64,000 bases of DNA from a virus (Duplodnaviria; Caudoviricetes), in IMG/VR virus record IMGVR_UViG_3300029288_003518, positions 32,001 to 96,000 of that record; one strand, written 5' to 3'. A program made the position numbers and the translations under genes. Positions 13,772 through 64,000 of the stretch are shown here, piece by piece; positions within the stretch are counted from its first letter, which is position 1; each line of letters opens with the position of its first letter. The notes below the pieces were generated by a model. That model made no database searches. It was not told where the DNA came from and was given only the letters and a program-made list of their open reading frames with translations.

Positions 13772-14035
13772 TTACAACTTGCCTATTGCATCTTTGATCA
13801 TCCCTACCTGTGCCTTAAGCTTGTTTACCGCGATCTCTAAAGTAGTGACATTGAATGCAGTATCATCAAGAATCCTTAACCACAGGTTATCCCAATCCGT
13901 TAGTGTACTCTGGGTAACATAGTGGACAAGATCGGTAGATAGGCTAGCTTCCGCTGCCGTATTATAACTGATCATATAGTCTACGTAGTCTCCACTTGCC
14001 AAGGCCCCGGTTGGACTAATAGGAGGAAGAGGCAT
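13772..14035 (-). CDS. Small virion-associated or coiled-coil hypothetical protein
   Basis: Last gene of the tail operon; heptad-like C-terminus. Confidence 0.55.
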   Translation of the reverse strand: MPLPPISPTGALASGDYVDYMISYNTAAEASLSTDLVHYVTQSTLTDWDNLWLRILDDTAFNVTTLEIAVNKLKAQVGMIKDAIGKL

Positions 14036-14036
14036 C

Positions 14037-14264
14037 TTATCTACTCCTTAATTCTATGATTAAATTATTTATTGTTAAGGTTAAACTTTCAACATCCGCA
14101 GTTAATATATTTAGTCTCCCGGCCAGAGAATTCAACTGGCTCTGCAGGGCAACTTGAATAGTATTAACATTAGACATCTGAGCTAGCTTTGCCATATCAC
14201 CCTGAATACTAGCGAGCTTATTATATATCTGTGTCAATTGTGCCTGATAGTCTAGGTTAGCCAT
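14037..14264 (-). CDS. Small coiled-coil protein
   Basis: 75 aa with a continuous heptad pattern. Confidence 0.55.
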   Translation of the reverse strand: MANLDYQAQLTQIYNKLASIQGDMAKLAQMSNVNTIQVALQSQLNSLAGRLNILTADVESLTLTINNLIIELRSR

Positions 14265-14274
14265 TTTTCCTTTC

Positions 14275-15483
14275 CTATGTAGTAGTTGTGTAAGTAATAG
14301 ATATTGACTTGAATAACGGGCTCTTGGTATCTCCGTCGCCCTGAGTCAATTCTACCATTACCCAAAGAGTGTTAAGTCCAAATACACTTAAGTCCAGCGG
14401 AGCAGTCTTGGTGATAGAAGCATTGCTTGAATTCCAGATCGGTAAATTATTATTAAACTCAGACTCTGAAGTATAGATATTAACCTTATAAGTAATGTTG
14501 TCGTAGGCCGGATCGGTCCTTAGAGATGTTATAAGATTGATTAACCCAGTCTCATATTCAGGGAGCTTAAATCTGAACCCAATCTTCCCCGATGCCCTAT
14601 ACTCCACCTTCTCTATCCCCAACTCTTTAGCCCCATACACGAATGTTTTATAGTCATCTTCCATCTTACTGCTTCTCTGCCTCAGATATAGCTTTATCTT
14701 AGTAGGCTGTATATTATTAAAAGAGTACATTATGGATCTAGTATTGTTTTCCCCATCCGCCGGAAACGAAGGAAGCACGAGATCCTGTGACACTAAGGTA
14801 TCATATGTAATCACCTGAACATCTTCCACTCCCTCCGGATATGGTTTGATGTGTAGTTTATTTACATAAGGGTTACTCATAGATGGCAATGTCACCACAA
14901 GAAGGCACCTTGAACTGGTCTTTGTCGAGTCCCTGTTATACCTAACCTTTCTTTCCCAAACTGTTTCATCCTGGCCATCAAATGCCCTATTTGGACTAGT
15001 CTCCTCTAACTTTACACTCCCAGTCTCATCTATAGGAGTAACCTCTACCTTTAAGTCGGGAGCTACAATAGATCTACCATCGGTAATATTTATAGTATAG
15101 ACCTTGGAAAAACTATTATTAACCGGTAGGGTCACAACCCCAAACTCATCATTAACAACGCACTTATCTACTTCTACTATATTGGTAGGATATACTACCT
15201 GGTTCGGCATATAGAAATCTTCGTAGAATATCTTGTAGTTAGATGCAGATTGTTCATAGGAGGTTATTAGACCGCTCACAGCGTATACACGAGAACTAAT
15301 GGCCTCTACCTCATGCCTTATTCTAGATTCAAGATCATTAACATCAACAACAATGTTAGAAGCTTCAGAAAATATAGTATTCAAATCATAGAGTATATCC
15401 TCTAGATTCTTATTCATATCCTCTGAAGATGTGTTCCCCCTCCACTCAGGGAGTACGGGTGAAAAGATAGGTATCAATGCCAT
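14275..15483 (-). CDS. Virion structural protein (baseplate/fibre paralogue family)
   Basis: N-terminal SSEDMNKNLEDILYDLNTIFSE and C-terminal SPLFKSISITY are shared with the 21-28 kb paralogues; RAFDG..TVW is a discoidin-like signature. Confidence 0.65.
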   Translation of the reverse strand: MALIPIFSPVLPEWRGNTSSEDMNKNLEDILYDLNTIFSEASNIVVDVNDLESRIRHEVEAISSRVYAVSGLITSYEQSASNYKIFYEDFYMPNQVVYPTNIVEVDKCVVNDEFGVVTLPVNNSFSKVYTINITDGRSIVAPDLKVEVTPIDETGSVKLEETSPNRAFDGQDETVWERKVRYNRDSTKTSSRCLLVVTLPSMSNPYVNKLHIKPYPEGVEDVQVITYDTLVSQDLVLPSFPADGENNTRSIMYSFNNIQPTKIKLYLRQRSSKMEDDYKTFVYGAKELGIEKVEYRASGKIGFRFKLPEYETGLINLITSLRTDPAYDNITYKVNIYTSESEFNNNLPIWNSSNASITKTAPLDLSVFGLNTLWVMVELTQGDGDTKSPLFKSISITYTTTT

Positions 15484-15495
15484 TTTACGTTCTCC

Positions 15496-15804
15496 TTATT
15501 CTAGAATTTGCACTGGGTCTGCCTGAGCATAAATTCTATTTTCTATTTTAGATTCCATATCGTAAACTGCCATCTTGAGATCATATAAGCTATATAGACT
15601 ACCAGATGGCAATAAATATCCAGAAGCAAGGACATCTATGCTGTCCTTAATTCCCTCTATCTCATTGAATATAGTACTTAGATCGGTAGCAACCTCAGAG
15701 AATGACTCCCTGGCTTTCTTCGATTCAGTAGGCCCATAGTAACGATGGTTCACCTTAGATGTAGTAACTATTTTATTAAAGGGGCTTATGTAAGACATCT
15801 TCAC
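15496..15804 (-). CDS. Small structural protein, N-terminal-domain paralogue of the adjacent gene
   Basis: YGPTESKK...EVATDLSTIFNE resembles RGNTSSED...DILYDLNTIFSE. Confidence 0.55.
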   Translation of the reverse strand: MKMSYISPFNKIVTTSKVNHRYYGPTESKKARESFSEVATDLSTIFNEIEGIKDSIDVLASGYLLPSGSLYSLYDLKMAVYDMESKIENRIYAQADPVQILE

Positions 15805-18800
15805 CTCTCTATTGTGTTATTGTGAGCGCCTAATTTATTAATTTGCAACTTTAGTTCATTGATTTCCCGCTGCTGTTCCTGTACTGCCCTAACTAGAACC
15901 GCAGTTAATTGCCCGTAGCTTAATCCCAATTCCCCTTCCGAACCACTGACTATTTCAGGGATTATCTTCCGCATATCCTGAGCAATGAAACCAACTTGTT
16001 TTTTATTACTTTCGTCCTGTTTGTGTACATAATAAACTGGCCTTAACTTTTCTATTTCCTTTATTCCGTACTTAAAATCATAGTCTATATCTTTCTTATA
16101 TGCTAAGTCAGATCCAGCTATCCAGTCCCCGGTCCCATCGCAATAAGCTCCTCCGTTTAAATGAATTAAATGGGATGGAGATGTGAGAGTTAACCCAACA
16201 TAACCGCTTGGATCAACGAGTATCCTAGATTTACCCTGAACCTGATCGTATATTTCAAACACACTAGTACCTGAAGCTATTCCTCTACCTATCCGAGTTT
16301 TGATGCCAGCAGTTCCAGACCCTGCTCCGGTATTTTTAAAGTCAATACTAGCTCCAGCATCCCAATCTCCCTCTAATGTAATAACTGGGAATCCATTGTG
16401 GAAACGCGCTATATAATCAGTCCCACCCTCTACGTCTAACGTAACCGAGGGGACAGCAGTCCCAACTCCAAGTCTTTGTGATGTATCTATAGTCATGGCT
16501 ATATGATCGCCATTGGTCCCAAATTGTAAAGCATTCTGGGAACGCAAGCATATGGAACTGGCGAGCTCACCTGTAAATACCGTATCCCCACCAGAACCCA
16601 AATGGCCAAAACCAAAATATCCCCTCTTGGTAATACCATCAGTTCCCCCGGTAAAGGTCATATAGGCGCCTATATCATCAGCACTTTGCCACCGATTAAT
16701 ATCAAAATGACCCAGGGTTAATCTCGCATAACCCGATTCACAGGCTATAATCTGATTAAATGGGGCCCCACCACCACTAAAACTATCGGAGTCACAGAAT
16801 ATTGAGTTATTAAGTGTCTCATCCAGATACCAAAGTGTTATGGTCGTAGGAGTGGCGTCATATAACCCATTGCCGAAGAAATAATTGTATTTAGCATACT
16901 TCAGTTTTATCCCATAGTTATAATGCCCCAGCTCAATTGCATTCCCTGTGATGAAGTTTCTACTATTATATTCTCCCGCATCACCCAGCATCTCAAGAGC
17001 ACAATCTCCCCCACAACCAAGTGCCCAGAAGTTCTTACTTATAGTTATTCCGTTGACATACTTATTCAGTAATATCTTTCTCAGGTTATTAAAGTAATTA
17101 TTTTCTATGGTTGTTACATATCCCTGGAAGGGAGCGTCATTGTCTAGATCTCCAAGGTGAGCTATATTGTTCCCTCCAAGAATAATAATATCTTGTGCCA
17201 ATGTCGCATCAACAGCTTCAGTTTTGCCTATAAAAGAACAATCATGTATCTTTAAGGTGGTATTGGTAGTAAAAACAAAAGGAAGGGTGCCATCTGTAGT
17301 ATCCTTAAGCTGCAAGTTGGATATCTCCAATAGACCTTTTCCTTTTGTAACTATCTTAGCGATACTACCCGCATATCTTAGATCTATAGCCGAAGGAGCT
17401 GTTGGAGCGGTGAAACTAGAACCATTTAACCAAGTTGAATCTCCTCCTCCACCCATCCCGACTAAACGTATTGTGGGTTGCTGAGGGTAGACTCCATTGA
17501 TGCTTAATTGCTTTCCATCATTCGCAAGAGCTATCTGGCTATCAACTCTATAGGTCCCCTTGGGGAACAGTACAGTTCCACCGCCAGAGTTATACGCGGC
17601 AGTAATAGCCGCCAATACTGCGGTTGAATCATCAGTGGTCCCATTCCCGAGTGCTCCGTAGGCCCTCACATCAAAACTGGGAGACTTGGAAACAACATCA
17701 GATACCGTAAGTACACCACTGCAGCTTATTTTTGCAACAGATGATATTGGATTTCCAGAGTAGAAATTATAAGACACGGGGACAGAAGTACTAGTTGGGT
17801 TTCCATCAACATCGATGCCTATATATCCACCTAATCTCTCTACTGAGTTGGTTTGCCCGGCCCAACTTAAATAACCTAAGGTATCTCCGTTTTGAATATC
17901 ATTGGTAGACCTAGATTTATACCACTGGATCCCTTGGGAATACTGGTCGTTGGTAGAGACTGATATATTAAGAGAAGCATTGGATAAATCAACAGATCCA
18001 GTAAAGATTGGATTCAATGTTGGAGCGGCCCCTAAATCAGCATAGGAAAGATTTGCCCCATTAACTTTATAATGAGATCCAGGGGTAATATTTACATCCC
18101 CATTAACATCAATTATTCCACTGCTGCTTATTTTCATTATCTGGGTAATTGGTGTCCCAGAGTAGAAAGTAAAAGATGTTGGAATTGAACTTGCTGTCGG
18201 AGTACCATCTATATCAATACTGAGATATCCACCTATCCGAGATATAGCGCTAGTCTGACCCGCAAAAGACAAATAGCCCAGATTGTCTCCTAATACCGTG
18301 TCTCCGGTACCACGAGACTTATACCATTGGATCCCCCTACTCCACTCATCATTACTCGTAACTGTTAAATTAAGACTTTCGTTAGTTATGGCAACAGCAC
18401 CATTTACCTCTAGTTTAACCCCGGGTACTGTGGTACCAATACCAACCCTCTGGGCTGTATCAATAGTCATAGCTATAAAGTCACCATTGGTTCCAAAATG
18501 CATCGGTCCATAAGACTTTAGGGCTATAGAATCTACTAACTCTCCTGTAAATATGGTGTCTGCTCCGCTACCGGTATGACCAAAACCAACCATCCCCCTG
18601 GGAGTATTACCTATTGATCCACCAAGGAAATTTATTTTACCACCAATATCATTGGTAGTCTGTATTTTTTTGCACCACCAATCGGTAAAAGCTGTAATAC
18701 TACCGGTTGCGGTAATACTATTAGGAACCTCTAATCCATCATCAGCATCTCTTCCCCCGAAAATATAATTACCCTCACAAGTAACAATTGTATCATTCTG

Positions 18801-21002
18801 ATGAATAATCCAATTATTTGTAGAATTAGTTATATTCCAGAATGCTCCGGTTACACCCGGAGTAACATCTCCTATCCAATTACCAATGAAGAACCCATCA
18901 TTATGATAGTTTAATTTAACTCCATTAGTATAATAGAGCATCTCAATTGTGTTACCACAACAATAAGTCCCACCATTTGTTCCCGCGGTATTTACACCAT
19001 CAGCTTCAATGGCTGCTAAACCACCACATCCGAGAGTCCACCAGCAGTGTACTATCTGTACGGCATTTGCGTAACACTTTAAATAAACACCCCTCTGGAT
19101 TCTGGAGAAATAAACATTATTTATAACAGTTATATATCCCTGAAATGGGGCATCATCATATAGATCACCTAAATGTGTAATATTAAATCCACCACATATA
19201 ATAGCATCCTGGGTAGGTTGGACTAAAGAATTTGCCTCTGTCTTTCCTATAATTGAACAATCATGTATATTTAACTGAGAATTAGTTGTTTGTATAAATG
19301 GAGTAGTACCATCTGTACTGTCTATTAACTGCAAGTTAGCTATCTCGACAAGACCCTTTCCGTGGGTCATTAATTTAGCTTCATAAGGACCACCAACATA
19401 TCTTAGATCCAAAACAGAAGGAGCTTGCGGAAGTGGGTAAACGTGACCATCCAACCAGGTAGAGTCACCACCCCCCCCAACACCAATAAACCGGAATGTT
19501 GGCTGTTGAGGATAAATACCATCTATATGGAATTGTTTCCCATCGTTTGGAAGGCGTATCTGACTATCTATTCTATATGTTCCCTTCGGGAATAAAATGG
19601 TTCCGCCACCAGTATTATAGCACGCCGTAATAGCTGCCAACACTGCAGTTGAGTCATCGGTAGCCCCATTGCCCAGAGCCCCAAAAGCCCTTACGTCAAA
19701 CCATGGGGAAGTAGTAATAATCCCCGAAGCACTGATTGTTGCACTTAAGTTTAAATTCCCCGTAAGATAATTATCAGTAATAGAACCATTGCCTAGGGTA
19801 ACGGTATTACTTCCGTGTCCAACCGCGGCATACCCAATAACTATCTCATTCGTATCCCCATCAGCTTTGGCCATAGTGCTCATGCCAAGATATACTGAAT
19901 TCTCTGAGGTTACATTGGGATTTACGAACCCAGATATATATCTACCGGAGTTCACTCCTATTGCCGTATTTCTATTTCCTATAGTAATATTCGATAAAGA
20001 ATAATAGCCAATAGCAGTATTATCGCTTCCGGTCGTATCCCAGTAGAGAGAAGCTACCCCAAGAGCAGAACAGGTATTAGCTGTTGAGCTCGTGATAAGC
20101 GCATTCATCCCTATAGCAGTATTAGAAAAACCAGTGGTATTGTCGTGTAAAGCCGCTACTCCGACAGCGGTATTGGAATACCCCTCGGTATTTAAATAAA
20201 GAGACTCTTCTCCACAGGCTGTATTATAACTTCCGCTCGTGTTTAACCAAAGCGAGCAATACCCCGCGGCCGTATTGAAAAACCCCGTAGTATTAGAATA
20301 TAAAGAATTAGTTCCTAAGGCACTATTGGCATATCCCTCAGTGTTGGATAAAAGAGAGTTTTGTCCAAAAGCAGAATTATCATATCCGATAGTATTGAAC
20401 CTAAGAGCCGACACTCCAAACGCTGAGCTTCCATATCCTGCGGTATTACTAAAGAGAGACCCTACGCCAAAAGCTGAATTATAGCTTCCGCTAACATTGC
20501 CCCAGAATGATTGATACCCTAAGGCAGAGTTATCAATCCCTGTTCCAACCGAGTTTCCGGCTCCACCAAAATAATAATTATTTAGCGCGGTTTGAGCAAA
20601 TCCGAAAGTTAGATCATTGTATTTATATAATCCACCATTAACAACATTAAGACTATTAGTGGTTGTTGTCCCATTAACCTGCAAGGCAGTACTCGGTACC
20701 ATAGTACCAATTCCTAATTTATCAGTAAGGACTGTAGGATAAATTGATCCAGTCGAAGGGAATCGCGTAAATGGTGACAGGGGATGCTCCTGAAAAGTTC
20801 CCCAACCATTGGCATCTGAGGTCAGTACATAACCAGAGGGTACTGGACCACCTATTTTAATATGATCAAAATAACCAGAGGCAAAGACACCAGAGGCATA
20901 TATGTCGGAGGATAGGTGCCACCGCTGTATGCTTTTTTCCTTGAGATCACCATTTCCCTTAAGAAAGGAAACTGAAAAATTATCTATTTTACTCGCAGGC
21001 AT
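15801..21002 (-). CDS. Tail fibre/spike (1733 aa): 14-aa NxAxG beta-roll repeats, two pectate-lyase-like beta-helix domains, C-terminal peptidase S74 intramolecular chaperone
   Basis: Repeats N(S/T)A(F/L/I)GxxxLxxNTxG; twice FDVRA(F/Y)GALGNG.TDDSTA...G(T)..FPKGTY; C-terminal GSDLAYKKDI...GFIAQD...PEIV...LSYGQLTAVLVRAVQE. Confidence 0.9.
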   Translation of the reverse strand: MPASKIDNFSVSFLKGNGDLKEKSIQRWHLSSDIYASGVFASGYFDHIKIGGPVPSGYVLTSDANGWGTFQEHPLSPFTRFPSTGSIYPTVLTDKLGIGTMVPSTALQVNGTTTTNSLNVVNGGLYKYNDLTFGFAQTALNNYYFGGAGNSVGTGIDNSALGYQSFWGNVSGSYNSAFGVGSLFSNTAGYGSSAFGVSALRFNTIGYDNSAFGQNSLLSNTEGYANSALGTNSLYSNTTGFFNTAAGYCSLWLNTSGSYNTACGEESLYLNTEGYSNTAVGVAALHDNTTGFSNTAIGMNALITSSTANTCSALGVASLYWDTTGSDNTAIGYYSLSNITIGNRNTAIGVNSGRYISGFVNPNVTSENSVYLGMSTMAKADGDTNEIVIGYAAVGHGSNTVTLGNGSITDNYLTGNLNLSATISASGIITTSPWFDVRAFGALGNGATDDSTAVLAAITACYNTGGGTILFPKGTYRIDSQIRLPNDGKQFHIDGIYPQQPTFRFIGVGGGGDSTWLDGHVYPLPQAPSVLDLRYVGGPYEAKLMTHGKGLVEIANLQLIDSTDGTTPFIQTTNSQLNIHDCSIIGKTEANSLVQPTQDAIICGGFNITHLGDLYDDAPFQGYITVINNVYFSRIQRGVYLKCYANAVQIVHCWWTLGCGGLAAIEADGVNTAGTNGGTYCCGNTIEMLYYTNGVKLNYHNDGFFIGNWIGDVTPGVTGAFWNITNSTNNWIIHQNDTIVTCEGNYIFGGRDADDGLEVPNSITATGSITAFTDWWCKKIQTTNDIGGKINFLGGSIGNTPRGMVGFGHTGSGADTIFTGELVDSIALKSYGPMHFGTNGDFIAMTIDTAQRVGIGTTVPGVKLEVNGAVAITNESLNLTVTSNDEWSRGIQWYKSRGTGDTVLGDNLGYLSFAGQTSAISRIGGYLSIDIDGTPTASSIPTSFTFYSGTPITQIMKISSSGIIDVNGDVNITPGSHYKVNGANLSYADLGAAPTLNPIFTGSVDLSNASLNISVSTNDQYSQGIQWYKSRSTNDIQNGDTLGYLSWAGQTNSVERLGGYIGIDVDGNPTSTSVPVSYNFYSGNPISSVAKISCSGVLTVSDVVSKSPSFDVRAYGALGNGTTDDSTAVLAAITAAYNSGGGTVLFPKGTYRVDSQIALANDGKQLSINGVYPQQPTIRLVGMGGGGDSTWLNGSSFTAPTAPSAIDLRYAGSIAKIVTKGKGLLEISNLQLKDTTDGTLPFVFTTNTTLKIHDCSFIGKTEAVDATLAQDIIILGGNNIAHLGDLDNDAPFQGYVTTIENNYFNNLRKILLNKYVNGITISKNFWALGCGGDCALEMLGDAGEYNSRNFITGNAIELGHYNYGIKLKYAKYNYFFGNGLYDATPTTITLWYLDETLNNSIFCDSDSFSGGGAPFNQIIACESGYARLTLGHFDINRWQSADDIGAYMTFTGGTDGITKRGYFGFGHLGSGGDTVFTGELASSICLRSQNALQFGTNGDHIAMTIDTSQRLGVGTAVPSVTLDVEGGTDYIARFHNGFPVITLEGDWDAGASIDFKNTGAGSGTAGIKTRIGRGIASGTSVFEIYDQVQGKSRILVDPSGYVGLTLTSPSHLIHLNGGAYCDGTGDWIAGSDLAYKKDIDYDFKYGIKEIEKLRPVYYVHKQDESNKKQVGFIAQDMRKIIPEIVSGSEGELGLSYGQLTAVLVRAVQEQQREINELKLQINKLGAHNNTIER
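16430..19710 (-). repeat. Internal duplications in the tail fibre gene (large about 430-aa unit x2; about 86-aa unit x2)
   Basis: Large copies begin near 19710 (SPWFDVRAFG) and near 17684 (SPSFDVRAYG). Small copies GIQWYKSR...GYLS.AGQT...FYSG lie at about 18375-18118 and about 17972-17716. Confidence 0.85.
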
Positions 21003-21005
21003 ATT

Positions 21006-28306: not shown

Positions 28307-28323
28307 CTATGATCCTCGCATTT

Positions 28324-34272: not shown

Positions 34273-34283
34273 CTTTTCTCCTG

Positions 34284-34814: not shown

Positions 34815-34828
34815 GTTTAACCTCTCTA

Positions 34829-39742: not shown

Positions 39743-39755
39743 TTTAGTCTCCTTA

Positions 39756-40712: not shown

Positions 40713-40722
40713 TTATATCTCC

Positions 40723-41154
40723 TTATGCAAATTTTCTGGCCCTAACTAATACTTCTTTTTTAACAATCATTTTTTTAAGTTCATCCTTGAGCAACATATC
40801 CGGCTCAGTAGCGTAACTATCTCCCGGGTTTCTGTATAGAAATGTTTTGGGTATTATGAGCGCCGGTCGTCCCTCTATAAGCGAAGGATTGTCTGTCAGT
40901 ACATAAGCATAATACAGATCCTTCATCAGCGTAGGGAAACCATATACTCCAATAGATCCGCAGCATATTACATTATAAAGTTTCTGTGTCTCCGATGTAG
41001 CAGTATCTATAGTCATATATCCTATTGGGGATACCTTTAGTACGGCAGAGAATCCAGCATACTGGTTACATTCTATTATATCACATATTACCCCAGGAAT
41101 GTGAGTCCTATAATCAGAGAATGCATTGTCCTTTATATTATTCTGTATTTTCAT
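40723..41154 (-). CDS. Hypothetical baseplate-region protein
   Basis: Synteny only. Confidence 0.45.
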   Translation of the reverse strand: MKIQNNIKDNAFSDYRTHIPGVICDIIECNQYAGFSAVLKVSPIGYMTIDTATSETQKLYNVICCGSIGVYGFPTLMKDLYYAYVLTDNPSLIEGRPALIIPKTFLYRNPGDSYATEPDMLLKDELKKMIVKKEVLVRARKFA

Positions 41155-41156
41155 AA

Positions 41157-50400: not shown

Positions 50401-50719
50401 CTAACTTACCAGTATATCCCGGGAAGGGGGTTCCAATACCGTGTAATGAAGTATAGGCTTCACTCTTTTTATATGCCTCCAGCCATTCCTTATTTATCTT
50501 AACACCCTGTCCGGCTGGGTTAACTAATGTCTCAAACTTATTTATTGTCTTGCCGGTTACCCCAACTCCGCCAATCTGTAATACAACTCCCTTATGCGTA
50601 GCTCCGCTCTCAAGAATATCTTCCATCCATCCCGATGTCTCAACATCAAGGACAGATAATGGAGTTCTTTTGAGCAGTGCTTGTATAAGTTTATTTGTAT
50701 TCGCCGGAGCTTTAGGCAT
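47432..50719 (-). CDS. 1095-aa tape-measure-region protein with an N-terminal DEDDh (DnaQ-like) 3'-5' exonuclease domain
   Basis: ExoI VLDVETSG, ExoII GYNLKKFDLPFL and ExoIII LHQSLTD. The rest is helical and charged with one TM-like helix near the C-terminus. Confidence 0.75.
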   Translation of the reverse strand: MPKAPANTNKLIQALLKRTPLSVLDVETSGWMEDILESGATHKGVVLQIGGVGVTGKTINKFETLVNPAGQGVKINKEWLEAYKKSEAYTSLHGIGTPFPGYTGKLASVKEVQQKLSGLFGPESKGLLLGYNLKKFDLPFLQERIGWSPTLQQQHQIIDVMQLAKKSIPGLKSYALPDVAKMLGIKVPTGLHQSLTDSILTLAVFRDKRISGDSSIGNVLKMLHDIPDINRLNQQIKFDKMQSEYRKARIAAGELPYGGIGTPKSHLGDIDFSLETSQGEAERAQADVNYLREKMHAESRQELLDYYKNRAIEESVFMGAHSPETLALAKKRIPFWEQVSPRNMRREFIMENLGFTESQADLLMGGKYPKGNLRKVFAAKMAEFEITGHLPGRMSKLASSRIVSFGAFASEPGALFSGMLPSGKSAYITPEQQRGFMEHVFGVTKSYRMAGTGELVTPEQMSKIKVVAPAEDIAALNQYGTKAKFRTYLESEISKERKLAKRERKGWVDLERATQVNPYEYNIGKPGRRKPNLKVEDEEMFFERMIREATEGAPAEDINLVGESVAAGTRSMEAIEGDIKGLTGKTEAEREKLLQAAEQLTGQAEIELGAGVGAENLESAAAKTNLYSTVGDTVSYIENTSWHQRRLSQLKDYYNKAFITEWIEAKGKSGKAIKEKVFTGYSEEFKKGFAKSMTSAKAMELSLAGKSREEIEEILGIVRKGSTIKVKIDGKWQTIVEEDADKLSQIYLQGTAESSSMLFSSLKNEIPVRAQAEQVLEIFFRKSKKKAGYEAYTAAGTLIGETSKKTVPPKAYAKIFEWKGKYRVGWAPTATPFYASRYGTVEQAIGGMPEVNSLLDLDDAYRLRYNADVQDKLKKMYDQTGEDYKLIAKYKFDRTQKAFVDIETGQAVDEAIAKTYFTKIEKTYERHAKAVQRQKFSRATRTLDLTAGKATEQVFGGRLPKGKNMLYAALSVSAALVALTAFSSRRRIMSPKDVPREAYGSNTDDERMFNGRPAVQNRANITPEYSGPMGYRTNIDVHTTDSTGVDPRNLSEVMNRHASNTLRTSKGSVHMEINDNSDRATSYQLQNRYSNMLRA

Positions 50720-50720
50720 T

Positions 50721-53700
50721 TTACCTCATCACTAGGCTGTGTTTCATGGCTCGATTATGCTCTTCAGTCCTATCCCTATTCATATTGATCTTAATACTAT
50801 AGGAATCCTCCGCGGCTGGAGTCCTGGAGACATAAACCCTGTTATTACTCATTCCGAACCTCTCCATGTTTGAGACCATTGTATTCTGCAACATTGTAAG
50901 ATCATTACTTGGGGCATTAATATTATCAATTACGGGAGTAAAAGGCTGTCTAGCTAGTTGCCTCTCATTGCTCTCCCACAAATTAAATTTATGTATATCG
51001 AAAGCTTCATTCTTGACTACCCTCAATTTTACCTGATCAAGACTAACATCCGGATGCCACCCCAACCATTCAGGAGGAGGTAGCTGATGATGCCTAAAAT
51101 ACTCTGTCATATCCCGAGATTTCTGATAATCTACGTCATATGAAGGGCCTATTCCATTTTTGGCATCCTGCTGGTTCCATGCTGTCATATAATAATTACG
51201 CATGTATGAGGGAACCATATTCATTATCCTGGTGCGTCTTTCACCGGATGCACCAGAAAAATCAGGGAAGAAAGGTCTCTCTTCTTTTGGCATAGCATAT
51301 ATGGCTGTCTCTGGAATATAAGAACCAGCGGCCATCGTATTCCTTGACATCCTACCCAGTTTCTGAGCTAGTTCTGCATTACCCTGATCTCTTGCTATCT
51401 GTGACAGATTAGAATACTTTATATATTTAAGTTTATCAAAATATTCCTGTATTTCCCGGCGCCTTTTAACAGCATCGGGAATATATCCGGGGTCAAACAT
51501 GCTTCTAACTTTACTCATAAATGGATTAACAAAACCGGCCATTGGTTGATCCCACATTGCGTATTCTGAGCCATACAATCTAAAATCCTTATAAACACTC
51601 TCTGGAGTTTTATAGGGTAACCATTTATTAATATGTGCAGGAACCGGACCAACTGCCACCTTATGGGGAAGCATATCTAGTGGATTAGGAAAATTCGTTA
51701 TAGCCGCTAATGAATGCCTATATATACTACTTGCTGGCTTTAGTAAGAATGGAACGCCCTCTGTGCTTGTGCTAAGAAACTCATATTCTTGGTTAAGAGC
51801 ATTCCTCTGAGCTAATGTTTTTTCGACTTTCCTAGCCCAATATTCATCGTCCTTGACCATGGCCTTAGCTAAATATTGATACTCCTTAAACTCATTAGAA
51901 TAAGGAGCCACATTAGCTAATATCATAAATCTATCTACAGCATCATATACTCCAGGAATTCCAGAGTGCATCCTGTTGAGAGCTTCATATCCCGGTCCAG
52001 GCAATCTCGATTCGCCCAGTGGAACCTTTACATAAGGATCCCCTTGTCTAAAGTTAATGAAATAATCTTCCCCCGGTAACCAGCTTGGCATGGTGTTGGG
52101 GATTGGGTTGTATTCTTCCGCTCCAGTTCTGCGATGCGGTAAGAACCTTCTAAAGTATTCAGTGAGGCCTTCATCTAGTCCGGCACCAGGATCTCCAAGT
52201 TCCTTCTCCCAATAAGATCTTTCATAACCAGTAGCTCTTCTTGCTGTTTGAAGAACAGACTGACTACCCATAAAGTCCTGCTGTCCGGTTAATTTCTCAT
52301 ATATAGTATTGGCAGCAAAACCGATAAGACCCATCTGCTCGGTTTGGGTATATGCTCCCATACCTAATTGATATTTTAAGCTATAAGGACTCTGGGCTGA
52401 GCTTACCCCCATACCTGGGATATTCTTAAATCCCATCGATTGACCAGCAAACGCCGGAACCCCTTTTTCCCTACTAGAAGCATTCTCCTGGTCCCCCCCC
52501 AAGTATTCCTGATGCATATAGGTAGAAGGTTTGAGAATACGCCCTATAGTGAGGTTTGCGAGCCAAGAGAAGGGCATTGTAGGCTCGAAAAGCTCTCCAG
52601 TGACCGGATATGGCCTGTTATAGTAATTCTTCCTCTCCCAGTAGTATGGATCCCACATTTTACCAGTAAGAAGGGGGGCTAAAATAGGGCTAACCGGTGT
52701 CCCCTGGGCCCAGTATTCAGTCTCTGAATCCCATAAACCACCACGGTATTGATACCGGCTTCTTAGCAAAGGATACCAATGTTTCTTCCAATAAGATATC
52801 TTTCCCCCAAAGAAAGGAGTCTTTCCCATCAACCAGAACCTTCCTTTTTTCATGGGTATTTCTTGCTCACCGGAAAATATTCTATGTAGTTCTTCTGGAC
52901 TCTGAGTTATGTCTCCCCAAGATATAAGGGCTGATGCTAATCCTAGAGCCAACCCCATGGCATATCCTTTAGGGCCACCTTTTTTAGCCAGCATACTGGC
53001 CATCACAAAAGGAGTTCCCAATCTTAGGGCATATGACAGTGGACTCTTTATTAAACCCGGGAACGCTTGTTCCGCAGTTCTGGCAGCATTAACTATACCC
53101 AGGTGCTGTAAAACATTCTGTTGGAATTCTCGCGCATTAACATAGGCACTAGCGGCTACATCAGTTGGCCCCCACCCTACTACTTGGCGAGAAAGATAGT
53201 TTATGAACTTATATGTATATATAGCTCCCATCCCCAGGCCGACAATCTTCATTGTCTTCCCTAGATTACGTATCCATACATCTGAATACGAACCTGGAGC
53301 CGAACCAAATAGATTCCTAACAAATTCCGTAGCTACATTCCCTTTACCTGACACCCCCAAACCAAAAGCTTTCTCCCCAACCTTATGGAATGTTCCCCCG
53401 GAGATCATAGAAATCCATCTCTTAGTGGTATCACCTGGACCAGATATATACCACGGACCCTCACTACCTCCCCAGTTTGATCCTAGGGTTTTACCAGTTA
53501 CGTTATACCTTCTAGGAGTTACTGGGAGAGTTTCACCAGATATGGGATGCTTAAAATTCCAATCCCCCTTTCCTCTTATGTGCCTCTCTAACTGCTGTGG
53601 TGCACCACCACCATAAGAAGCAAACTCTTCTGAATATCCAACTTTTCTACCAAATTGGAATATTTTGAATCTTGCTTGGGCGGACTTAGTCTGAGCAGCC

Positions 53701-54779
53701 TTAGCTGAGATAATCTTTCTAGTCTTAGCTGATTCCTCTAACAGCAACCTTCTAAAAGTTAGGTTTTGCCTAGGATGGGGTTCATAGGTAGATACCTTCT
53801 TGGTCATAAAGGCTTCCAGTGTAGGAATTCGTTCTTGCGTTCTACTTACCGGATTTTTCCACCACTCAGAGCCTGTCCCTTGTAATTTTTCATGTTCAAG
53901 AGCTGCCATACCCTCAAGTTCTTTGGAAGTCATCCCGGGCTTCATACCGGTACTAGGAAAGAACCTGGCAAGATATTCCCTCTTTATAAATTCCCTTCTT
54001 TCGACCTCATAGACCGATTTGGGATCTAATTCTATTTTCCGTACATATTCCTCTGTAGTCCTTGGATTGAGGGGTTTAATTACACCCCTTCTCATTCTCT
54101 CAATATTAGCTCCCCAAGCATTAGTAACACTAGCGTGCATTCCTTTTATCGCAAAGCCAGAGAAATTTCCGCTAGACAATGCATCCTTGGGATCTTTTAG
54201 AAAGTGTAGTTTATCTCCTATTAATATACCACCATGCTTACCAACTTTAGCTGGGACACCGGGCCTGCCCACAACTCCTAGACTAGTTCCACCCCTAAAC
54301 GGGACTACAGAAGGGCCATATAATAGTTGCCTCAATATGCTGGGTTCTTTTATCCCTAACGTACTCCAGGCAGGGAATACTGACTTGGGATACTTAAGAT
54401 GTTTCTCTAAGAAGTTCTGTGCTATATGATATTGTTCTTCTGCGCTGGGAAGTGGTTTAAAGATATCCCTGATGGTATCCATCATACCGGTACCGGCATC
54501 TTCGAATTTATCCAGGGTTGCTTCCCTTATAGTTTTAACATTACGAGAAGTAGTTAGCCTGGCATCAGAAGCAAGATACTTTTCAAACCTGGTTGATTTC
54601 CCTAGCCCCGCTCTTAGTATATCCCTTGATACACCTCTAGTAAGAGCAAGTTTCTTCCTAGCGGCAATAAAAGCAACTATACCGGCTACGGAAACTACAG
54701 CTCCCATAATGTCGGATTGCTTTTCTTGATTACTCCTGGTATCTTCGTAAGGACTAAAGGAAAAATCTTTAAAGGCCAT
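50721..54779 (-). CDS. Tape-measure-like / large virion protein (1352 aa)
   Basis: First large gene after the tail chaperones; several hydrophobic helices. No classical TMP repeats were recognised. Confidence 0.55.
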   Translation of the reverse strand: MAFKDFSFSPYEDTRSNQEKQSDIMGAVVSVAGIVAFIAARKKLALTRGVSRDILRAGLGKSTRFEKYLASDARLTTSRNVKTIREATLDKFEDAGTGMMDTIRDIFKPLPSAEEQYHIAQNFLEKHLKYPKSVFPAWSTLGIKEPSILRQLLYGPSVVPFRGGTSLGVVGRPGVPAKVGKHGGILIGDKLHFLKDPKDALSSGNFSGFAIKGMHASVTNAWGANIERMRRGVIKPLNPRTTEEYVRKIELDPKSVYEVERREFIKREYLARFFPSTGMKPGMTSKELEGMAALEHEKLQGTGSEWWKNPVSRTQERIPTLEAFMTKKVSTYEPHPRQNLTFRRLLLEESAKTRKIISAKAAQTKSAQARFKIFQFGRKVGYSEEFASYGGGAPQQLERHIRGKGDWNFKHPISGETLPVTPRRYNVTGKTLGSNWGGSEGPWYISGPGDTTKRWISMISGGTFHKVGEKAFGLGVSGKGNVATEFVRNLFGSAPGSYSDVWIRNLGKTMKIVGLGMGAIYTYKFINYLSRQVVGWGPTDVAASAYVNAREFQQNVLQHLGIVNAARTAEQAFPGLIKSPLSYALRLGTPFVMASMLAKKGGPKGYAMGLALGLASALISWGDITQSPEELHRIFSGEQEIPMKKGRFWLMGKTPFFGGKISYWKKHWYPLLRSRYQYRGGLWDSETEYWAQGTPVSPILAPLLTGKMWDPYYWERKNYYNRPYPVTGELFEPTMPFSWLANLTIGRILKPSTYMHQEYLGGDQENASSREKGVPAFAGQSMGFKNIPGMGVSSAQSPYSLKYQLGMGAYTQTEQMGLIGFAANTIYEKLTGQQDFMGSQSVLQTARRATGYERSYWEKELGDPGAGLDEGLTEYFRRFLPHRRTGAEEYNPIPNTMPSWLPGEDYFINFRQGDPYVKVPLGESRLPGPGYEALNRMHSGIPGVYDAVDRFMILANVAPYSNEFKEYQYLAKAMVKDDEYWARKVEKTLAQRNALNQEYEFLSTSTEGVPFLLKPASSIYRHSLAAITNFPNPLDMLPHKVAVGPVPAHINKWLPYKTPESVYKDFRLYGSEYAMWDQPMAGFVNPFMSKVRSMFDPGYIPDAVKRRREIQEYFDKLKYIKYSNLSQIARDQGNAELAQKLGRMSRNTMAAGSYIPETAIYAMPKEERPFFPDFSGASGERRTRIMNMVPSYMRNYYMTAWNQQDAKNGIGPSYDVDYQKSRDMTEYFRHHQLPPPEWLGWHPDVSLDQVKLRVVKNEAFDIHKFNLWESNERQLARQPFTPVIDNINAPSNDLTMLQNTMVSNMERFGMSNNRVYVSRTPAAEDSYSIKINMNRDRTEEHNRAMKHSLVMR

Positions 54780-54827
54780 GTGCTCTCCAAAAAAATAGGA
54801 GACAACGGGGGTTACCCATCATCTCCT

Positions 54828-55442
54828 CTATTTTTTGACATTAGGTTTACCGGTAAACGCGGATTGTATAAATCCTTGTTCCCTATTGTCTTTTTCGAAG
54901 TCTATTGTCTTTGTATTGGTTTCTGTCTTGGATATCTCTAGTTTTGTTCCGAGTAATTCCTCTGCTAGAGATATATAATGTAATGTTGTTGGATAATCGA
55001 AATTGTCTATATCAGTTGGGGTAATATGAGGAAATGCTTTACATATAACTAAAACTATCTGATTATCTAATAGCTGAATTTTTAGTCTCTCCTTATCAAG
55101 ATCAGCCTTAATATTCTCAATATCAGAAAACCCAGATAAAGACAAAATCTTATCTACAAGAGTTGTGACCTCCCCTGCCAATAAGTTACCACGCTGTTCC
55201 CGGCTGAAAGTCGGATACAGAATGCACTTATCAAGCAAAATATCTTCCGCCTCGCTACTTATATGGAACTGCACAAAGTACAGAGCGAGATATTCACCCT
55301 TGGTTAATAGTCTAAAGACGTATTCGTGATTTCCAATCTTTAGATAGTATATGCTTGCATACTTTCGCTTCCATTCAAGTATATCCGCGGAGAATCTTTT
55401 TAATTCTTCCGAGATCGTAAGATTCTCAACTTTTTCTTCCAT
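54828..55442 (-). CDS. Tail assembly chaperone, paralogue 2
   Basis: EWKRKYASIY...YVFRLL..EY...AGEVTTLV.KI..LSGF parallels the upstream gene. Confidence 0.7.
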   Translation of the reverse strand: MEEKVENLTISEELKRFSADILEWKRKYASIYYLKIGNHEYVFRLLTKGEYLALYFVQFHISSEAEDILLDKCILYPTFSREQRGNLLAGEVTTLVDKILSLSGFSDIENIKADLDKERLKIQLLDNQIVLVICKAFPHITPTDIDNFDYPTTLHYISLAEELLGTKLEISKTETNTKTIDFEKDNREQGFIQSAFTGKPNVKK

Positions 55443-55444
55443 TT

Positions 55445-55768
55445 TTAGAGCTTTACTGGTTCTTCTGTTATTCCAAAGTTAGAGGCCGCCATAATAAGCT
55501 CTACAAGGGTTGAAATTGTTCCAGCTTTTAACGTAGGCAACTTAGCTACATCAATAACCGGAAAGACCACGCACATTTGAACAATCTTCTCTTCATTAAA
55601 TGCCCGAGTAGATTCAGGGTTAGCCATAATAGTCTTATATTCAAACCTTTTAATTGGCCGGTAGAGATATTGCTCTTCACCAAGTGTTATTAAATAAACC
55701 TCACCATGTTTCACTTTCCATTCCTCGATCTGTTCTTGTGTAACTCCCTTCACTGCACTTTCTGCCAT
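55445..55768 (-). CDS. Tail assembly chaperone
   Basis: VTQEQIEEWKVKHGEVY is a typical chaperone N-terminus; located after the tube genes. Confidence 0.75.
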   Translation of the reverse strand: MAESAVKGVTQEQIEEWKVKHGEVYLITLGEEQYLYRPIKRFEYKTIMANPESTRAFNEEKIVQMCVVFPVIDVAKLPTLKAGTISTLVELIMAASNFGITEEPVKL

Positions 55769-55779
55769 TTCTATCTCCT

Positions 55780-56523
55780 TTATCTTGATGTTCCAATAAA
55801 CTCGTCCGTATTTCTAGCTATAAAGCTATAGTGCTCTTGAATGGGCTGTCCGCCCACCTGTATCATTTGTGATTCTCCCATAAGATGAACACCAACCAGG
55901 GTTTTCGTGGTGGATTGCATATGATCACTTAGGGTGGTTGTCTGGTTCTGTGATGGATTACCATAAGATATCATTATATTAAAACCATCAGGAATATCTA
56001 ATGACTGCTTTACATCCGGAGGTTCCAGGGTAGACGAACTAGCACTTTCTTCTCCCCATATAGAATCTTCATATACTTTTGCAAGACTATAGAAATCCTG
56101 GCTGTTACCTAATTCCTGTATCTCTGCTACCGAGCTTGGGCCAAAAGTACCGTTCTTAAGGTGGGCCGCTATGAGATCCTTGATTACTGGCCACTTAGTC
56201 TGGTCAAACTGCTGTTTACCGGTAGGATCATCAGCTGCTAGGGTCTTATATAGACTACTAATGTTGTCTAATACCGCGGCTAAGTATCCCTGCTGTCTGA
56301 AGTTTATAGTAAAAGAACCCTGGATTATGACCGTTCCCTTGGCTACTGAATCAAATAGTTGAGAAGCATACCCATAAATAGGCATCTTACCCTGGGTCCT
56401 AACCCATTGGATTGAATTAATATCGTCAATAAGAATGTTCCCCAGCCAGATAGTTATCTGCGATCCGGAGTAAAAGTCAAACTTATTGATAAATAATTCC
56501 TGATTCTGGGTAGTTGTACTCAT
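55780..56523 (-). CDS. Tail tube-like protein (tube initiator paralogue)
   Basis: FYSGSQI...KMPIYGYAS...VAKGTVIIQGSFTINF...FNIMISYG...YSFIAR. Confidence 0.75.
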   Translation of the reverse strand: MSTTTQNQELFINKFDFYSGSQITIWLGNILIDDINSIQWVRTQGKMPIYGYASQLFDSVAKGTVIIQGSFTINFRQQGYLAAVLDNISSLYKTLAADDPTGKQQFDQTKWPVIKDLIAAHLKNGTFGPSSVAEIQELGNSQDFYSLAKVYEDSIWGEESASSSTLEPPDVKQSLDIPDGFNIMISYGNPSQNQTTTLSDHMQSTTKTLVGVHLMGESQMIQVGGQPIQEHYSFIARNTDEFIGTSR

Positions 56524-57296
56524 TATTGTAATGTACTCCCATGAGAAGACATTCTTTTCTTGGCCTCGGCAATAAGAATATCGGTTCCAGTCCTGAGGCC
56601 GGGCAATGTCTTGCTTTTCCTGAAAGGAGGCCCTTTATGTAACATATCAATATCCGCTGCCACAAAAGAATTAGTCTGTTCAGTAATCATATCATCTATA
56701 CTAAAGGTAGACCCTTCATTAACGACTCTTACCCCATATATACCCATGGTAGCCACATCGCCATATTCATTATTGAATGTTATAATAATATTAAATGGAG
56801 GTATCTGGTCTATTAATATGGTTGTTGGATCATAATTATCTACATAGGAGTATTTAAGAGCCTCAGCTAACACATATTGATCCAGGACTGTCCACACAAG
56901 AGTACCGGCCACTGTTCTTGGCCCGCGGGTATAAGCATCCGCATAAGTCTTACCTAGGCTCCTTACTGGATCAACCTCTCTAAAAGTACTGTAACTAATA
57001 GTTTGGAGATTCCCCAATATACCAACAACAGGTTCAGTCTCTGAATTAGGTCCAGCTATTTCATCCCCGCCTATTTTCTGCGGAGGAATATGTATATAAG
57101 CTATAATGTCTGCTCCCGAGAATGAATTAAAGAATCCATACGCATTGCTATAGTAGCTCTGTGTACCTTCTTGGGCCCTTCTCCGGGCTATTTTTTCATT
57201 CTCAGTCTGATTTTGGGAGTATCCCTTATCACCCAAGGGCCACCAGTAGGGTGTAGTAATAAGGCTCCCCGCTGAAAGATCATCAAATAATCCCAT
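56523..57296 (-). CDS. Tail tube-like protein (paralogue)
   Basis: SFSGADI...LQTISYS...RGPRTVAGTLVWTV...DQIPPFNI...NEGSTFSIDD..TEQ, clearly homologous to the adjacent tube gene. Confidence 0.8.
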   Translation of the reverse strand: MGLFDDLSAGSLITTPYWWPLGDKGYSQNQTENEKIARRRAQEGTQSYYSNAYGFFNSFSGADIIAYIHIPPQKIGGDEIAGPNSETEPVVGILGNLQTISYSTFREVDPVRSLGKTYADAYTRGPRTVAGTLVWTVLDQYVLAEALKYSYVDNYDPTTILIDQIPPFNIIITFNNEYGDVATMGIYGVRVVNEGSTFSIDDMITEQTNSFVAADIDMLHKGPPFRKSKTLPGLRTGTDILIAEAKKRMSSHGSTLQ

Positions 57297-57311
57297 AAAT
57301 TCTCCTTTTGG

Positions 57312-57343
57312 AATGGGGCCATAGAGTTAACTACGACCCCATT
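57312..57343 (-). other. Stable RNA hairpin after the tail tube gene (no U-tract)
   Basis: Minus strand AATGGGGTCGTAG-TTAACT-CTATGGCCCCATT pairs fully using G.U wobbles only on the coding strand. Confidence 0.6.
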
Positions 57344-57354
57344 ATTTGTATCTA

Positions 57355-57963
57355 TTAAACTCCGCCTGCTCCCGCCCATGTTTTCGTAGAAGAAACATCT
57401 GAGTACGATGCTTTCCACGGGTTAATTTCCCTGGCAACAAATGTCATAGACTGTTCAGTAACTATATCATCTATAGACATACCAGAACCTTCATTCAAAA
57501 TCTCAACACCCCTGATAGACATCTGAGCTACCTGGCCGTATTCATTGGCCGCGGTAAGAACGATATCAAACGGAGGTATTTGATCAGGGTACCAAGAGGG
57601 TTGCCAAGAATTGTCAGTATTCACATCCTGCCAAACCTGAGCACCTTTAACTTCTTCGGTACTATGTTTTTGAACGTCGGTATCATGTGCAAAGAACCAA
57701 CCGGACTTGTCTTCCATAGTCTTAAATGACTCTAACAGAGCACTTCGGTCAAATACTGTGAACACGAGAGTACCAGCAATTCCTCTCTTACCCCTAGAAA
57801 AGGAGCGAGGATCAGCTGACCCCATCGTATAGATGGGAGCTTTCTCTCTCGTCACAGAATAAGACACGCCCTGTAGTTCACCAATAACCTTCCCGCCAAA
57901 CGTAGCTTTGATATCTACGCCGGAGAAAGAATTATAACTCCTGGTATATTCGCTGACTGGCAT
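57355..57963 (-). CDS. Major tail tube protein
   Basis: Directly after the sheath; SFSGVDI...LQGVSYSVTREKAPIYTMG...RGKRGIAGTLVF...PDQIPPFDI...EQSMTFVAR. Confidence 0.85.
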   Translation of the reverse strand: MPVSEYTRSYNSFSGVDIKATFGGKVIGELQGVSYSVTREKAPIYTMGSADPRSFSRGKRGIAGTLVFTVFDRSALLESFKTMEDKSGWFFAHDTDVQKHSTEEVKGAQVWQDVNTDNSWQPSWYPDQIPPFDIVLTAANEYGQVAQMSIRGVEILNEGSGMSIDDIVTEQSMTFVAREINPWKASYSDVSSTKTWAGAGGV

Positions 57964-60931: not shown

Positions 60932-61480
60932 TTAACTTACCCCCTTCAGGTTATTTTCGACACACCACATGGGCTGTAGATTTTTATAGTTACAAGCTTC
61001 CATGAATTGCCTCCTATTGGTTAAATCGAAATTTACTAAAGGTTTTATATGATCAATGTGCCACACTTTTCCCCATCTTCCACGATTATTCCAAGACATC
61101 CCGGGTTCAAACTTAGACTCAATATATTTTCTAAAGTATTCTATCGTGCATCCTAGATCCCGGACAGCCGATCCTGCTTTATAATTACTTCTCAAGGCCT
61201 GATTTAGGCGCGTCCTAAGACTGTGCGCCAAAGCATAATCAGAGTTAGATTCAAATTGTTTCTTCTGCCATTTTTTAGTAGTTTCTAGATTCTTCGCTCT
61301 ATTATTACGCTTCCACGTAGTTGAAACATTATTACAACGAACACTGTTCTTATTATACCATGCAGCATTTTTGATTTTATGACAAGATCTACACTCATCC
61401 CTGTGTCCATCCTTAGATTTAGAGTTCCTATTAAACTCACTAATATCTTTTCCTATATTGCAACAATTACATATCTTCAT
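60932..61480 (-). CDS. HNH endonuclease (putative free-standing homing endonuclease)
   Basis: N-terminal CNCC...CRSC, then LGCTIE...FEPGMSW.N.G..WHIDHIKPL...CNYKNLQPMW..ENNLKG. Confidence 0.85.
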   Translation of the reverse strand: MKICNCCNIGKDISEFNRNSKSKDGHRDECRSCHKIKNAAWYNKNSVRCNNVSTTWKRNNRAKNLETTKKWQKKQFESNSDYALAHSLRTRLNQALRSNYKAGSAVRDLGCTIEYFRKYIESKFEPGMSWNNRGRWGKVWHIDHIKPLVNFDLTNRRQFMEACNYKNLQPMWCVENNLKGVS

Positions 61481-62881: not shown

Positions 62882-62889
62882 GTTCTCCC

Positions 62890-63390
62890 CTATTTAGTTT
62901 CTGGTTCCTCATTATTCCCAGAAGTTAATTTAATTTCTACCTTGGCTTGCTCGGTTTCTTCCACAGAAGAAATCCCACCGATAGAATTAAGAATATTCTC
63001 AGCTATCTTTAGAATACTCTTACGATTTTTACCTAATTTCTCTAACTCAACAAGTTTCTCTATTTTGGCTATTTTGTAGCTACTTTTTACATTCTTCTCA
63101 TCTTTTAAGGCATACATCCATTCATCTACTTTATTTCTTCCCCCATTAAGTAGATTTTGAATATCACTATCCTTATCAAGAACTTCCACTTTGTCCTCTG
63201 GCCATCCGATACTTAAATGTTCAACTTTAATAGCATGATTAATTTGATCTAATTGATGGTCAGTTGCATTCTCTGGGATAACGGCCATTCTGTTCTCAGC
63301 CGAAAGATTAATTCCACCTTCACCTTCTTGAAAATAATACAATCTCTTGTCTATATTCAAACTTACTCTATCGCCTCTCTTAACTGACAT
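62890..63390 (-). CDS. Hypothetical head-associated protein
   Basis: Follows the capsid gene; LE..GKNRKSIL helical motif; GGAGG RBS. Confidence 0.55.
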   Translation of the reverse strand: MSVKRGDRVSLNIDKRLYYFQEGEGGINLSAENRMAVIPENATDHQLDQINHAIKVEHLSIGWPEDKVEVLDKDSDIQNLLNGGRNKVDEWMYALKDEKNVKSSYKIAKIEKLVELEKLGKNRKSILKIAENILNSIGGISSVEETEQAKVEIKLTSGNNEEPETK

Positions 63391-63421
63391 TATTCCTCCT
63401 ATATATTACTAGTTCAATGGA

Positions 63422-63546
63422 TAACCTGGGGCTAGGCTTTTACACCCAGCCCGCAGGTTAAACTCTATGACTCCTCTGCACCACTCTGATCTATGGGCGG
63501 TAATCCACCCTTCCCAGAAGTCCATATGATGCGCAGATCTACCATA
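63422..63546 (-). ncRNA. Candidate structured RNA / multi-hairpin element downstream of the capsid gene
   Basis: Nested stems TCTGCGC/GTGCAGA, TATG/CATA, CTTC/GAAG and GGTGG/CCGCC, plus a long hairpin TAACCTG-CGGGCTGGGT...GCCTAGCCC-CAGGTTA. Confidence 0.4.
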
Positions 63547-63550
63547 ATGA

Positions 63551-64000
63551 CTAAACTCCAGCCTGGTTGATAGTCGGAAGTGCACCAGTACCGGCCTGCC
63601 ACCTGAGTACATCCTCGAGGTCGTAAGCTTTAGTAATGCTGATGTTCTTTGCAACTGCGATCGCCTTACCTTCGTTCAGGATACCAAGACCATATCTTTC
63701 GCGGAACTTTATGGTACGGATATCTCTGCTCGGATCATCCCATTCCTCGTTAGTGACATCTTCATCTACGACTATAATACCAAGTTCATTGGTATCAGCC
63801 ATGATGATGTCAGTCTTAGCCGCAGTAGCACCAGAAGCTGCAGTATAGGACAAGAATGGGCTAACTATGATCCTTAAAGGAGAAGGGAACATGTTGGGAA
63901 CATTAGCATATGTGGTCGCAGAATACGGGGCGCTAGCGACCGGACCGACGTTGATTCCGCCCTGATACCAAGATTTCGCCACGCCTGGCTGACCTTGCAT
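63551..64000 (-). CDS. Major capsid protein, C-terminal part (5' end outside the window)
   Basis: IIVSPFL...EEWDDPSRDIRTIKFRERYGLGILNEGKAIAVAKNI is an HK97-fold capsid C-terminus pattern; upstream of the neck and tail genes. Confidence 0.85.
   Translation of the reverse strand: MQGQPGVAKSWYQGGINVGPVASAPYSATTYANVPNMFPSPLRIIVSPFLSYTAASGATAAKTDIIMADTNELGIIVVDEDVTNEEWDDPSRDIRTIKFRERYGLGILNEGKAIAVAKNISITKAYDLEDVLRWQAGTGALPTINQAGV

Follow-up and report, generated by a model that had tools for sequence, protein, structure and literature searches.

Introduction

The systems closest to the one described here come from bacteria and from bacteriophages. In Clostridioides difficile the gene for SgtA, a GT-A enzyme, directly precedes the collagen-like gene bclA3; the enzyme attaches O-linked N-acetylglucosamine (O-GlcNAc) to Thr in GPT repeats, a P-T-G context, and Ser is accepted too (PMC7157674). 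Transferases encoded by mycobacteriophages are thought to decorate the structural proteins of the phages themselves (Freeman et al. 2023, Cell Host Microbe, cited in PMC12582341). Here we describe a tripeptide, [AP]-S-G (Ala or Pro, then Ser and Gly), that recurs in the virion proteins of an uncultured tailed phage known from a single virus contig of 113,821 bases (IMG/VR record IMGVR_UViG_3300029288_003518). The stretch analysed, bases 32001-96000 of the contig (64,000 nucleotides), is called the window.

The phage is a myovirus and distant kin of Bacillus phage 0305phi8-36 (sheath identity 36%); a megablast against phages gave no match. Nearly all of its genes are carried on the minus strand, including the virion and glycan-cluster genes located below. 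From window position 13772 on, they encode fibres, baseplate, inner tail, sheath, neck and head.

Results

Enrichment and specificity of the tripeptide

The virion block (genome 45772-106109, 19,745 amino acids) contains 62 [AP]SG against 12.8 expected from per-protein composition. Within-protein shuffles (n = 2000) gave a mean of 13.0 (standard deviation 3.6) and a maximum of 28, corresponding to z = 13.8 for the observed count, and a first-order Markov model gave an expectation of 23-28. The enrichment, which a first, sequence-only reading had judged by hand against a rough composition estimate, thus outlasts composition correction. Scanning all 8000 tripeptides in the block without prior choice placed PSG at rank 1 (29 observed and 4.9 expected, written 29/4.9 from here on; p = 1e-13) and ASG at rank 2 (33/7.9, p = 3e-11). 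Sites are present in 26 of the 45 proteins of the block. Composition predicts 0.05-0.7 sites per protein among those counted by hand. Non-virion proteins, with the collagen-like fibre described below left out, hold one [AP]SG against 5.5 expected. Pooled with those of two relatives they hold 10 against 14.4, which indicates that the composition expectation is sound.

Every position of the tripeptide is specific. Ala and Pro are the only residues enriched before SG, and Asp is depleted there (1/7.1). In [AP]xG, the enrichment is for Ser only; [AP]DG (10/9.7), [AP]NG (10/9.3), [AP]GG (11/13.9) and [AP]TG all lie at about expectation. After [AP]S, Gly alone is enriched. A plain β-turn preference (type I with G1 bulge) was rejected as the source, as D, N, G and T are not enriched in the middle. 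Avoidance of deamidation, with SG replacing NG or DG, was rejected as well; neither NG (82/86) nor DG (87/90) is depleted. Three established motifs were counted in the phage, the Bacteroidetes sequon D-[ST]-[AILVMT] (74/69), the N-x-[ST] sequon (182/174) and the formylglycine/anSME motif [CS]x[PA]xR (8/7.4), and none is enriched.

An artefact of composition or of the DNA (a nucleotide motif, repeats or paralogy) is an extremely improbable explanation for the counts. Some of the tagged proteins are indeed paralogous, PHROG 21059 matching both the 327- and the 433-residue proteins. However, the observed count is far above what either the shuffles or the Markov model give, and the tag serines use TCN as well as AGY codons, which differ between sites; the mixed codons place the signal at the protein level and rule out a DNA-level motif. 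The sites, in 26 proteins, have no common domain around them. Their flanks show only a weak preference for Val at -2 and a residue from Y/V/I/F/L/W directly after the Gly in 30 of the 62 sites (background 31%), in keeping with the earlier statement that the motif is not one repeat family. Mixed codons, tripeptide scan, flanks and shuffles together effectively refute an artefact.

Distribution over the virion

The peripheral baseplate and fibre proteins contain 41 sites against 5.7 expected (7.2-fold), and the sheath and neck proteins 7 against 0.9 (7.4-fold). The inner tail, comprising the tube, its paralogues, the chaperones and three giant proteins, has 3 against 4.0 (0.7-fold). The head module lies between (4 against 1.4, 2.8-fold). 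The sequence-only reading had placed the tripeptide in outward-facing proteins. This stands for the exterior tail modules when set against the inner tail, with exceptions that tell against it: two virion paralogues of 750-780 residues have no site, a putative scaffold has two, and each gene of a radical-SAM triad has one.

The 454-residue protein (36199-37563) has seven, all ASG (p = 1e-5); the 327-residue protein (37616-38599), with a weakly NHL/β-propeller-like C-terminal half, has six (p = 2e-8); and the 301-residue protein (30727-31632), with an immunoglobulin (Ig)-like C-terminal part, also has six (p = 6e-7). The 1733-residue fibre (15801-21002) has six, three of them near the N-terminus at residues 36, 41 and 55. 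One, one and two sites are found in the adjacent virion proteins of 87, 402 and 102 residues (13772-15804), the second of which matches PHROG 19670 (virion structural protein). The virion or baseplate-peripheral proteins of 769 and 686 residues (25997-30384) have three and four, the 433-residue virion protein (31633-32934) two, the J-like baseplate wedge (377 residues) one and the 136-residue baseplate protein two (both within 38609-40166). Between 57985 and 63390, the sheath has three sites and the neck-region proteins of 320 and 459 residues have two each. Those of the 320-residue protein are near its C-terminus (residues 291 and 305); it had been called a tail terminator, and its PHROGs label is virion structural protein. 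The 3' part of the major capsid gene (63551-64000) contains one site. In the inner tail set (40176-57963; hub/lysin of 2091 residues, proteins of 1095 and 1352 residues, chaperones, tube and two tube paralogues), the three giant proteins have one site each. No site occurs in the primase-helicase or in either GT4 protein. The counts made by hand in the sequence-only reading for the 454-, 327-, 301- and 102-residue proteins, the sheath, the capsid fragment, the fibre N-terminus, the 320-residue protein, the giant inner proteins and the enzymes without sites were all reproduced.

Outside the window, just past the terminase gene, a basic, Cys-containing protein of 88 residues (genome 105392-105658, window numbering 73392-73658) has three PSG against 0.19 expected.

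Conservation and structural location of the sites

The tag-bearing 75-kb relative G001 has proteins 45-62% identical to those of the phage. Of the phage's own sites, 22/29 are kept there as [AP]SG, and the flanks diverge; all four sites of the 686-residue protein and both of the 433-residue protein are shared. In an alignment of the 327-residue family (30 members, 35-75% identity) each of the six sites is retained by 17-29 of the 29 sequences, and in the 301-residue family sites are kept in 18-25 of 31 homologues. Sites are thus retained in 58-100% of homologues, compared with 21% for the average triplet. A and P swap at the same alignment column. All 30 metagenome loci that the family search gave show 4- to 15-fold enrichment of [AP]SG; an alignment-based search for related loci found nothing in the viral or genome contig sets. 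By their retention the sites are under purifying selection. The sequence-only reading had regarded them as convergently acquired. They are instead mostly inherited. Lineage-specific additions exist too, at about one per protein where 0.2 would be expected.

AlphaFold models of the 327- and 301-residue proteins (mean predicted local distance difference test, pLDDT, 81.6 and 82.7) place 9 of the 12 tag serines in coil or hairpin loops and two at the start of the strand that follows a loop; the remaining one is in a short helical turn that ends a strand. In our reading, [AP]-S-G is a selected tag on turns, probably exposed ones, in the proteins that make up the tail exterior (fibres, peripheral baseplate, sheath and neck). 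In the 136-residue protein PSG aligns with PDG or DDG of 0305phi8-36 and of a Moorella phage. Overall, the corresponding positions of these two phages and KLEB27-3 are occupied by PDG, DDG, VAG or PKG, or else by unrelated residues. An NHL-like P-x-G-hydrophobic-x-x-D blade signature includes one of the PSG sites. Two DASG sites resemble the D-A-x-G turn of bacterial Ig-like domains.

Such locations bear on the possibility that the tag stays unmodified and serves in structure or interaction, either as a clade-specific solution for a tight turn or as a docking site for a clade-specific partner, which might be the collagen-like fibre, a decoration protein or an assembly factor. We consider this possible but doubtful. 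It accommodates the sites at turns and strand starts, the alignment of some with PDG, DDG or xAG turns in distant homologues, the PSG of the blade signature and the DASG sites, and it is also favoured by the homologous glycan clusters of relatives that lack the tag. However, a turn preference should favour D, N or G as the middle residue as well, and none is enriched; sister clades manage the same folds without [AP]SG; a founder effect cannot account for one tripeptide in more than 20 unrelated proteins; and new sites keep arising. Nor is deamidation avoidance the driver, given the undepleted NG and DG.

Relatives with and without the tag

A search with the tube protein gave 308 IMG/VR relatives. 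An excess of [AP]SG around the tube gene is found only at tube identity of at least 63% (L054-L066, 2.5- to 5.7-fold), and the level is about 1-fold in all others. Sister lineages, compared as whole genomes and large contigs (G003-G010), have [AP]SG near 1-fold in homologous modules. The homologous tail and baseplate modules of 0305phi8-36 and KLEB27-3 have 2/7.6 and 0/6.9. Moorella phage MTATph1 shows a mild rise that is equal for PSG (20/8.1) and PDG (20/7.9). A plain turn preference across kin was rejected, as the homologous folds of 0305phi8-36, KLEB27-3 and G003-G010 are without excess. Judged by this distribution, [AP]SG is a clade-specific tag.

In total the tail and baseplate modules of the two Bacillus phages 0305phi8-36 (L006) and KLEB27-3 (L007) have 2 [AP]SG against 14.5 expected, with a normal SG dipeptide count; this depletion may be avoidance or chance.

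A different tripeptide is found in one sister clade. In the IMG/VR genomes G007, G008 and G010 (loci L167-L199), [AP]SG is not enriched and A-T-P is the top tripeptide of the virion blocks (32/5.6, 25/5.8 and 26/4.0; 5- to 6-fold, p down to 2e-14). More than 10 virion proteins carry it, including capsid-adjacent, neck, sheath and baseplate proteins, mostly in the context [GDAS]-A-T-P-[NSDY]. These genomes carry two to three GT2 genes and no GT4. They also encode Thr-rich proteins, and G008 has (GPT)n collagen-like proteins in addition. Neither G003 nor G006 has a GT2 or GT4 gene; the structural block of G003 has no tag and that of G006 no dispersed tag. The top tripeptide of G006, FSP, was rejected as a tag because it stems from a WD-like repeat in two proteins and is not dispersed.

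Glycan cluster and collagen-like fibre

A glycan cluster of about 16 kb covers window 1-8104 and 8 kb upstream, up to a (G-Y/I-S)n fibre gene. At least seven GT2 domains are encoded there, including one within a GT2-methyltransferase-GT17 fusion. A GT4 pair (5583-8104) is present as well, as are RfbH-like and DegT-type pyridoxal phosphate enzymes, three methyltransferases, a hexapeptide acyltransferase and a nucleoside diphosphate-sugar 4,6-dehydratase. The part in the window comprises an O-methyltransferase, three GT2 genes, the RfbH-like and DegT enzymes, the hexapeptide acyltransferase and the GT4 pair. A GT4 query against the viral contig set gave no match.

The fibre gene (genome 16264-23346, L002:4264-11346, minus strand) lies 8.7 kb before the window start. 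Its product of 2360 residues is collagen-like: four blocks, separated by globular domains, hold about 450 G-[Y/I/V]-S triplets, and the C-terminus is S74-chaperone-like. A 339-residue GT2 (L002:11854-12873), whose atlas neighbours are phage GT2 clusters, is encoded about 0.5 kb upstream of it on the same strand. A smaller GT2 of 248 residues is located at 4123-4869; its NCBIfam match, to the SunS family, is weak and below the cut-off. This enzyme is common to the phage (G000) and the tag-clade contig G002 (52% identity) and is absent from G004 and G005. It is the only transferase shared by both tag-clade genomes that cover the region and without a copy in tag-less relatives.

In G002 a smaller homologous transferase cluster adjoins the primase, and the contig also includes the first of the tag-rich structural genes. 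G004 has a GT4 pair homologous to that of the phage and no GT2. In G005 a syntenic homologous cluster next to the primase contains two GT2, the GT4 pair, two DegT and a dehydratase. Neither G004 nor G005 has the tag or any other enriched tripeptide. Transferases and tag occur together in G002, both are missing from G003, G006, 0305phi8-36 and KLEB27-3, the GT2-bearing clade of G007, G008 and G010 has A-T-P, and G004 and G005 carry the transferase genes without the tag. As these last two possess the GT4 pair and show no excess of [AP]SG, the glycan cluster, taken whole, appears to be no predictor of the tag.

Radical-SAM genes in the virion operon

Within the tail and baseplate operon, a radical-SAM pair flanks a Cys-rich protein of 176 residues (32935-36187). 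The first gene is at 32935-34272 and the second, with a SPASM domain, at 34829-36187. They raise the possibility that the tag Ser or Gly carries another modification (oxidation, epimerisation, methylation, cross-linking or a phospho-type group) made by a radical-SAM enzyme of the tail operon or by a host enzyme. The position of these genes inside the virion operon speaks for this, as do three radical-SAM genes elsewhere in G001, between the 402-residue protein and the fibre (L050:10548-13643). We nevertheless think it unlikely. A homologous radical SAM occurs in the structural region of the tag-less G006, the fragment G016 bears the tag and has no radical SAM, and at the syntenic place G001 lacks the triad; radical-SAM genes and tag appear to correlate poorly. 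The anSME motif is, as noted, not enriched. We know of no radical-SAM modification that targets A/P-S-G.

Other features

The phage encodes a transfer-messenger RNA (tmRNA) at window 12106-12476 on the minus strand (Rfam RF00023, 92.6 bits). An endonuclease VII/HNH-like gene (60932-61480) sits among the neck genes. The primase-helicase has 818 residues in the phage and 1243 in G001, and the capsid gene of G001 is split by an open reading frame of 243 residues; both differences suggest inteins or homing elements.

Discussion

An O-linked modification fits the tag best. The amino acid at its centre has a hydroxyl group, with Pro or small residues on either side, and the tag of the sister clade is centred on Thr. 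The clade with the Ser tag has a Ser-based collagen-like fibre, and the clade with the Thr tag has Thr-based ones. In SgtA and BclA3 there is a precedent, as a GT-A enzyme encoded beside a collagen-like gene glycosylates P-T-G and accepts Ser. In the mechanism that we propose, a soluble phage glycosyltransferase would add a sugar to the hydroxyl of the tag serine in the host cytoplasm, and the same machinery would decorate the serines of the giant (G-Y/I-S)n fibre beside the glycan cluster. As reader of the tag, the small GT2 at 4123-4869 rather than the GT4 pair would be the best candidate.

Several points weigh against this assignment. G005 has a syntenic homologous glycan cluster and G004 has the GT4 pair, yet neither has an excess of [AP]SG. 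The link between the small GT2 and the tag rests on two genomes (G000 and G002), and the tag-bearing contig G001 stops at the primase, so that its transferase region is unseen. The pattern of tag and GT2 is also confounded by shared ancestry, since it may represent only two independent origins. The sequence-only reading had suggested that the phage's own glycosyltransferases may use the tag as a sequon, and had named its co-occurrence with the transferase cluster in related phages as a test. The suggestion is partly supported: the cluster is present and G002 has both, but the GT4 pair to which that reading pointed is also found in the tag-less G004 and G005. The link to the transferases is hence weaker than first assumed, because homologous clusters occur without the tag, and this leaves O-glycosylation of the tag serines by a phage transferase, with the tripeptide as acceptor site, at somewhat under an even chance. 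A modification of the serine, its nature as a glycan and the identity of the enzyme are all inferred here.

A wider and more speculative idea, to which we give less credence, is that tailed phages use clade-specific Ser or Thr tripeptide sequons, such as [AP]-S-G in this phage and A-T-P in its sister clade, read by small soluble GT2 enzymes, to lay a glycan coat over the tail exterior and the collagen-like fibres. Virions would then carry a 'glycocode' that could be predicted from sequence.

Literature searches found no description of such clade-specific virion tripeptide tags. Were the tag a sequon, the sites at which a phage decorates its own particle could for the first time be read from a sequence rule. 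Such a sequon would supply a minimal acceptor peptide for enzyme assays, allow glycosylated virions to be predicted in metagenomes and bear on host recognition, particle stability and evasion of immunity or defence. Even if the tag is unmodified, the selection of one tripeptide in over 20 unrelated exterior proteins, and its replacement by another in a sister clade, would constitute an unexplained constraint on virion evolution.

The tag resembles the bacterial motifs D-[ST]-[AILVMT], N-x-[ST] and [CS]x[PA]xR in being short, as expected of a motif read by a modifying enzyme. It differs in that none of these is enriched in the phage and that Asp is depleted before SG. As in mycobacteriophages, transferases are encoded by the phage. 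Freeman et al. (2023) reportedly found the mycobacteriophage glycans on C-terminal stretches of capsid and tail-tube subunits, with no short sequon defined. In the present phage, by contrast, the tube has no site and the capsid one, and a defined tripeptide is found on baseplate, fibre and sheath proteins.

The likeness to SgtA and BclA3 lies in gene order and acceptor context. In both systems a soluble GT-A/GT2 gene is directly upstream of a collagen-like gene, the fibre has Gly-X-Y repeats with a hydroxyl residue at Y, and the acceptor of BclA3 (Pro, hydroxyl residue, Gly) resembles [AP]-S-G. BclA of Bacillus, too, is a collagen-like glycoprotein with an adjacent GT-A enzyme that O-glycosylates it. 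The collagen-like fibre of the phage departs from both its own tag and BclA3, as Y, I or V rather than A or P precedes the Ser. Unlike the BclA3 acceptor, the phage tag extends beyond collagen repeats and is scattered over globular virion proteins.

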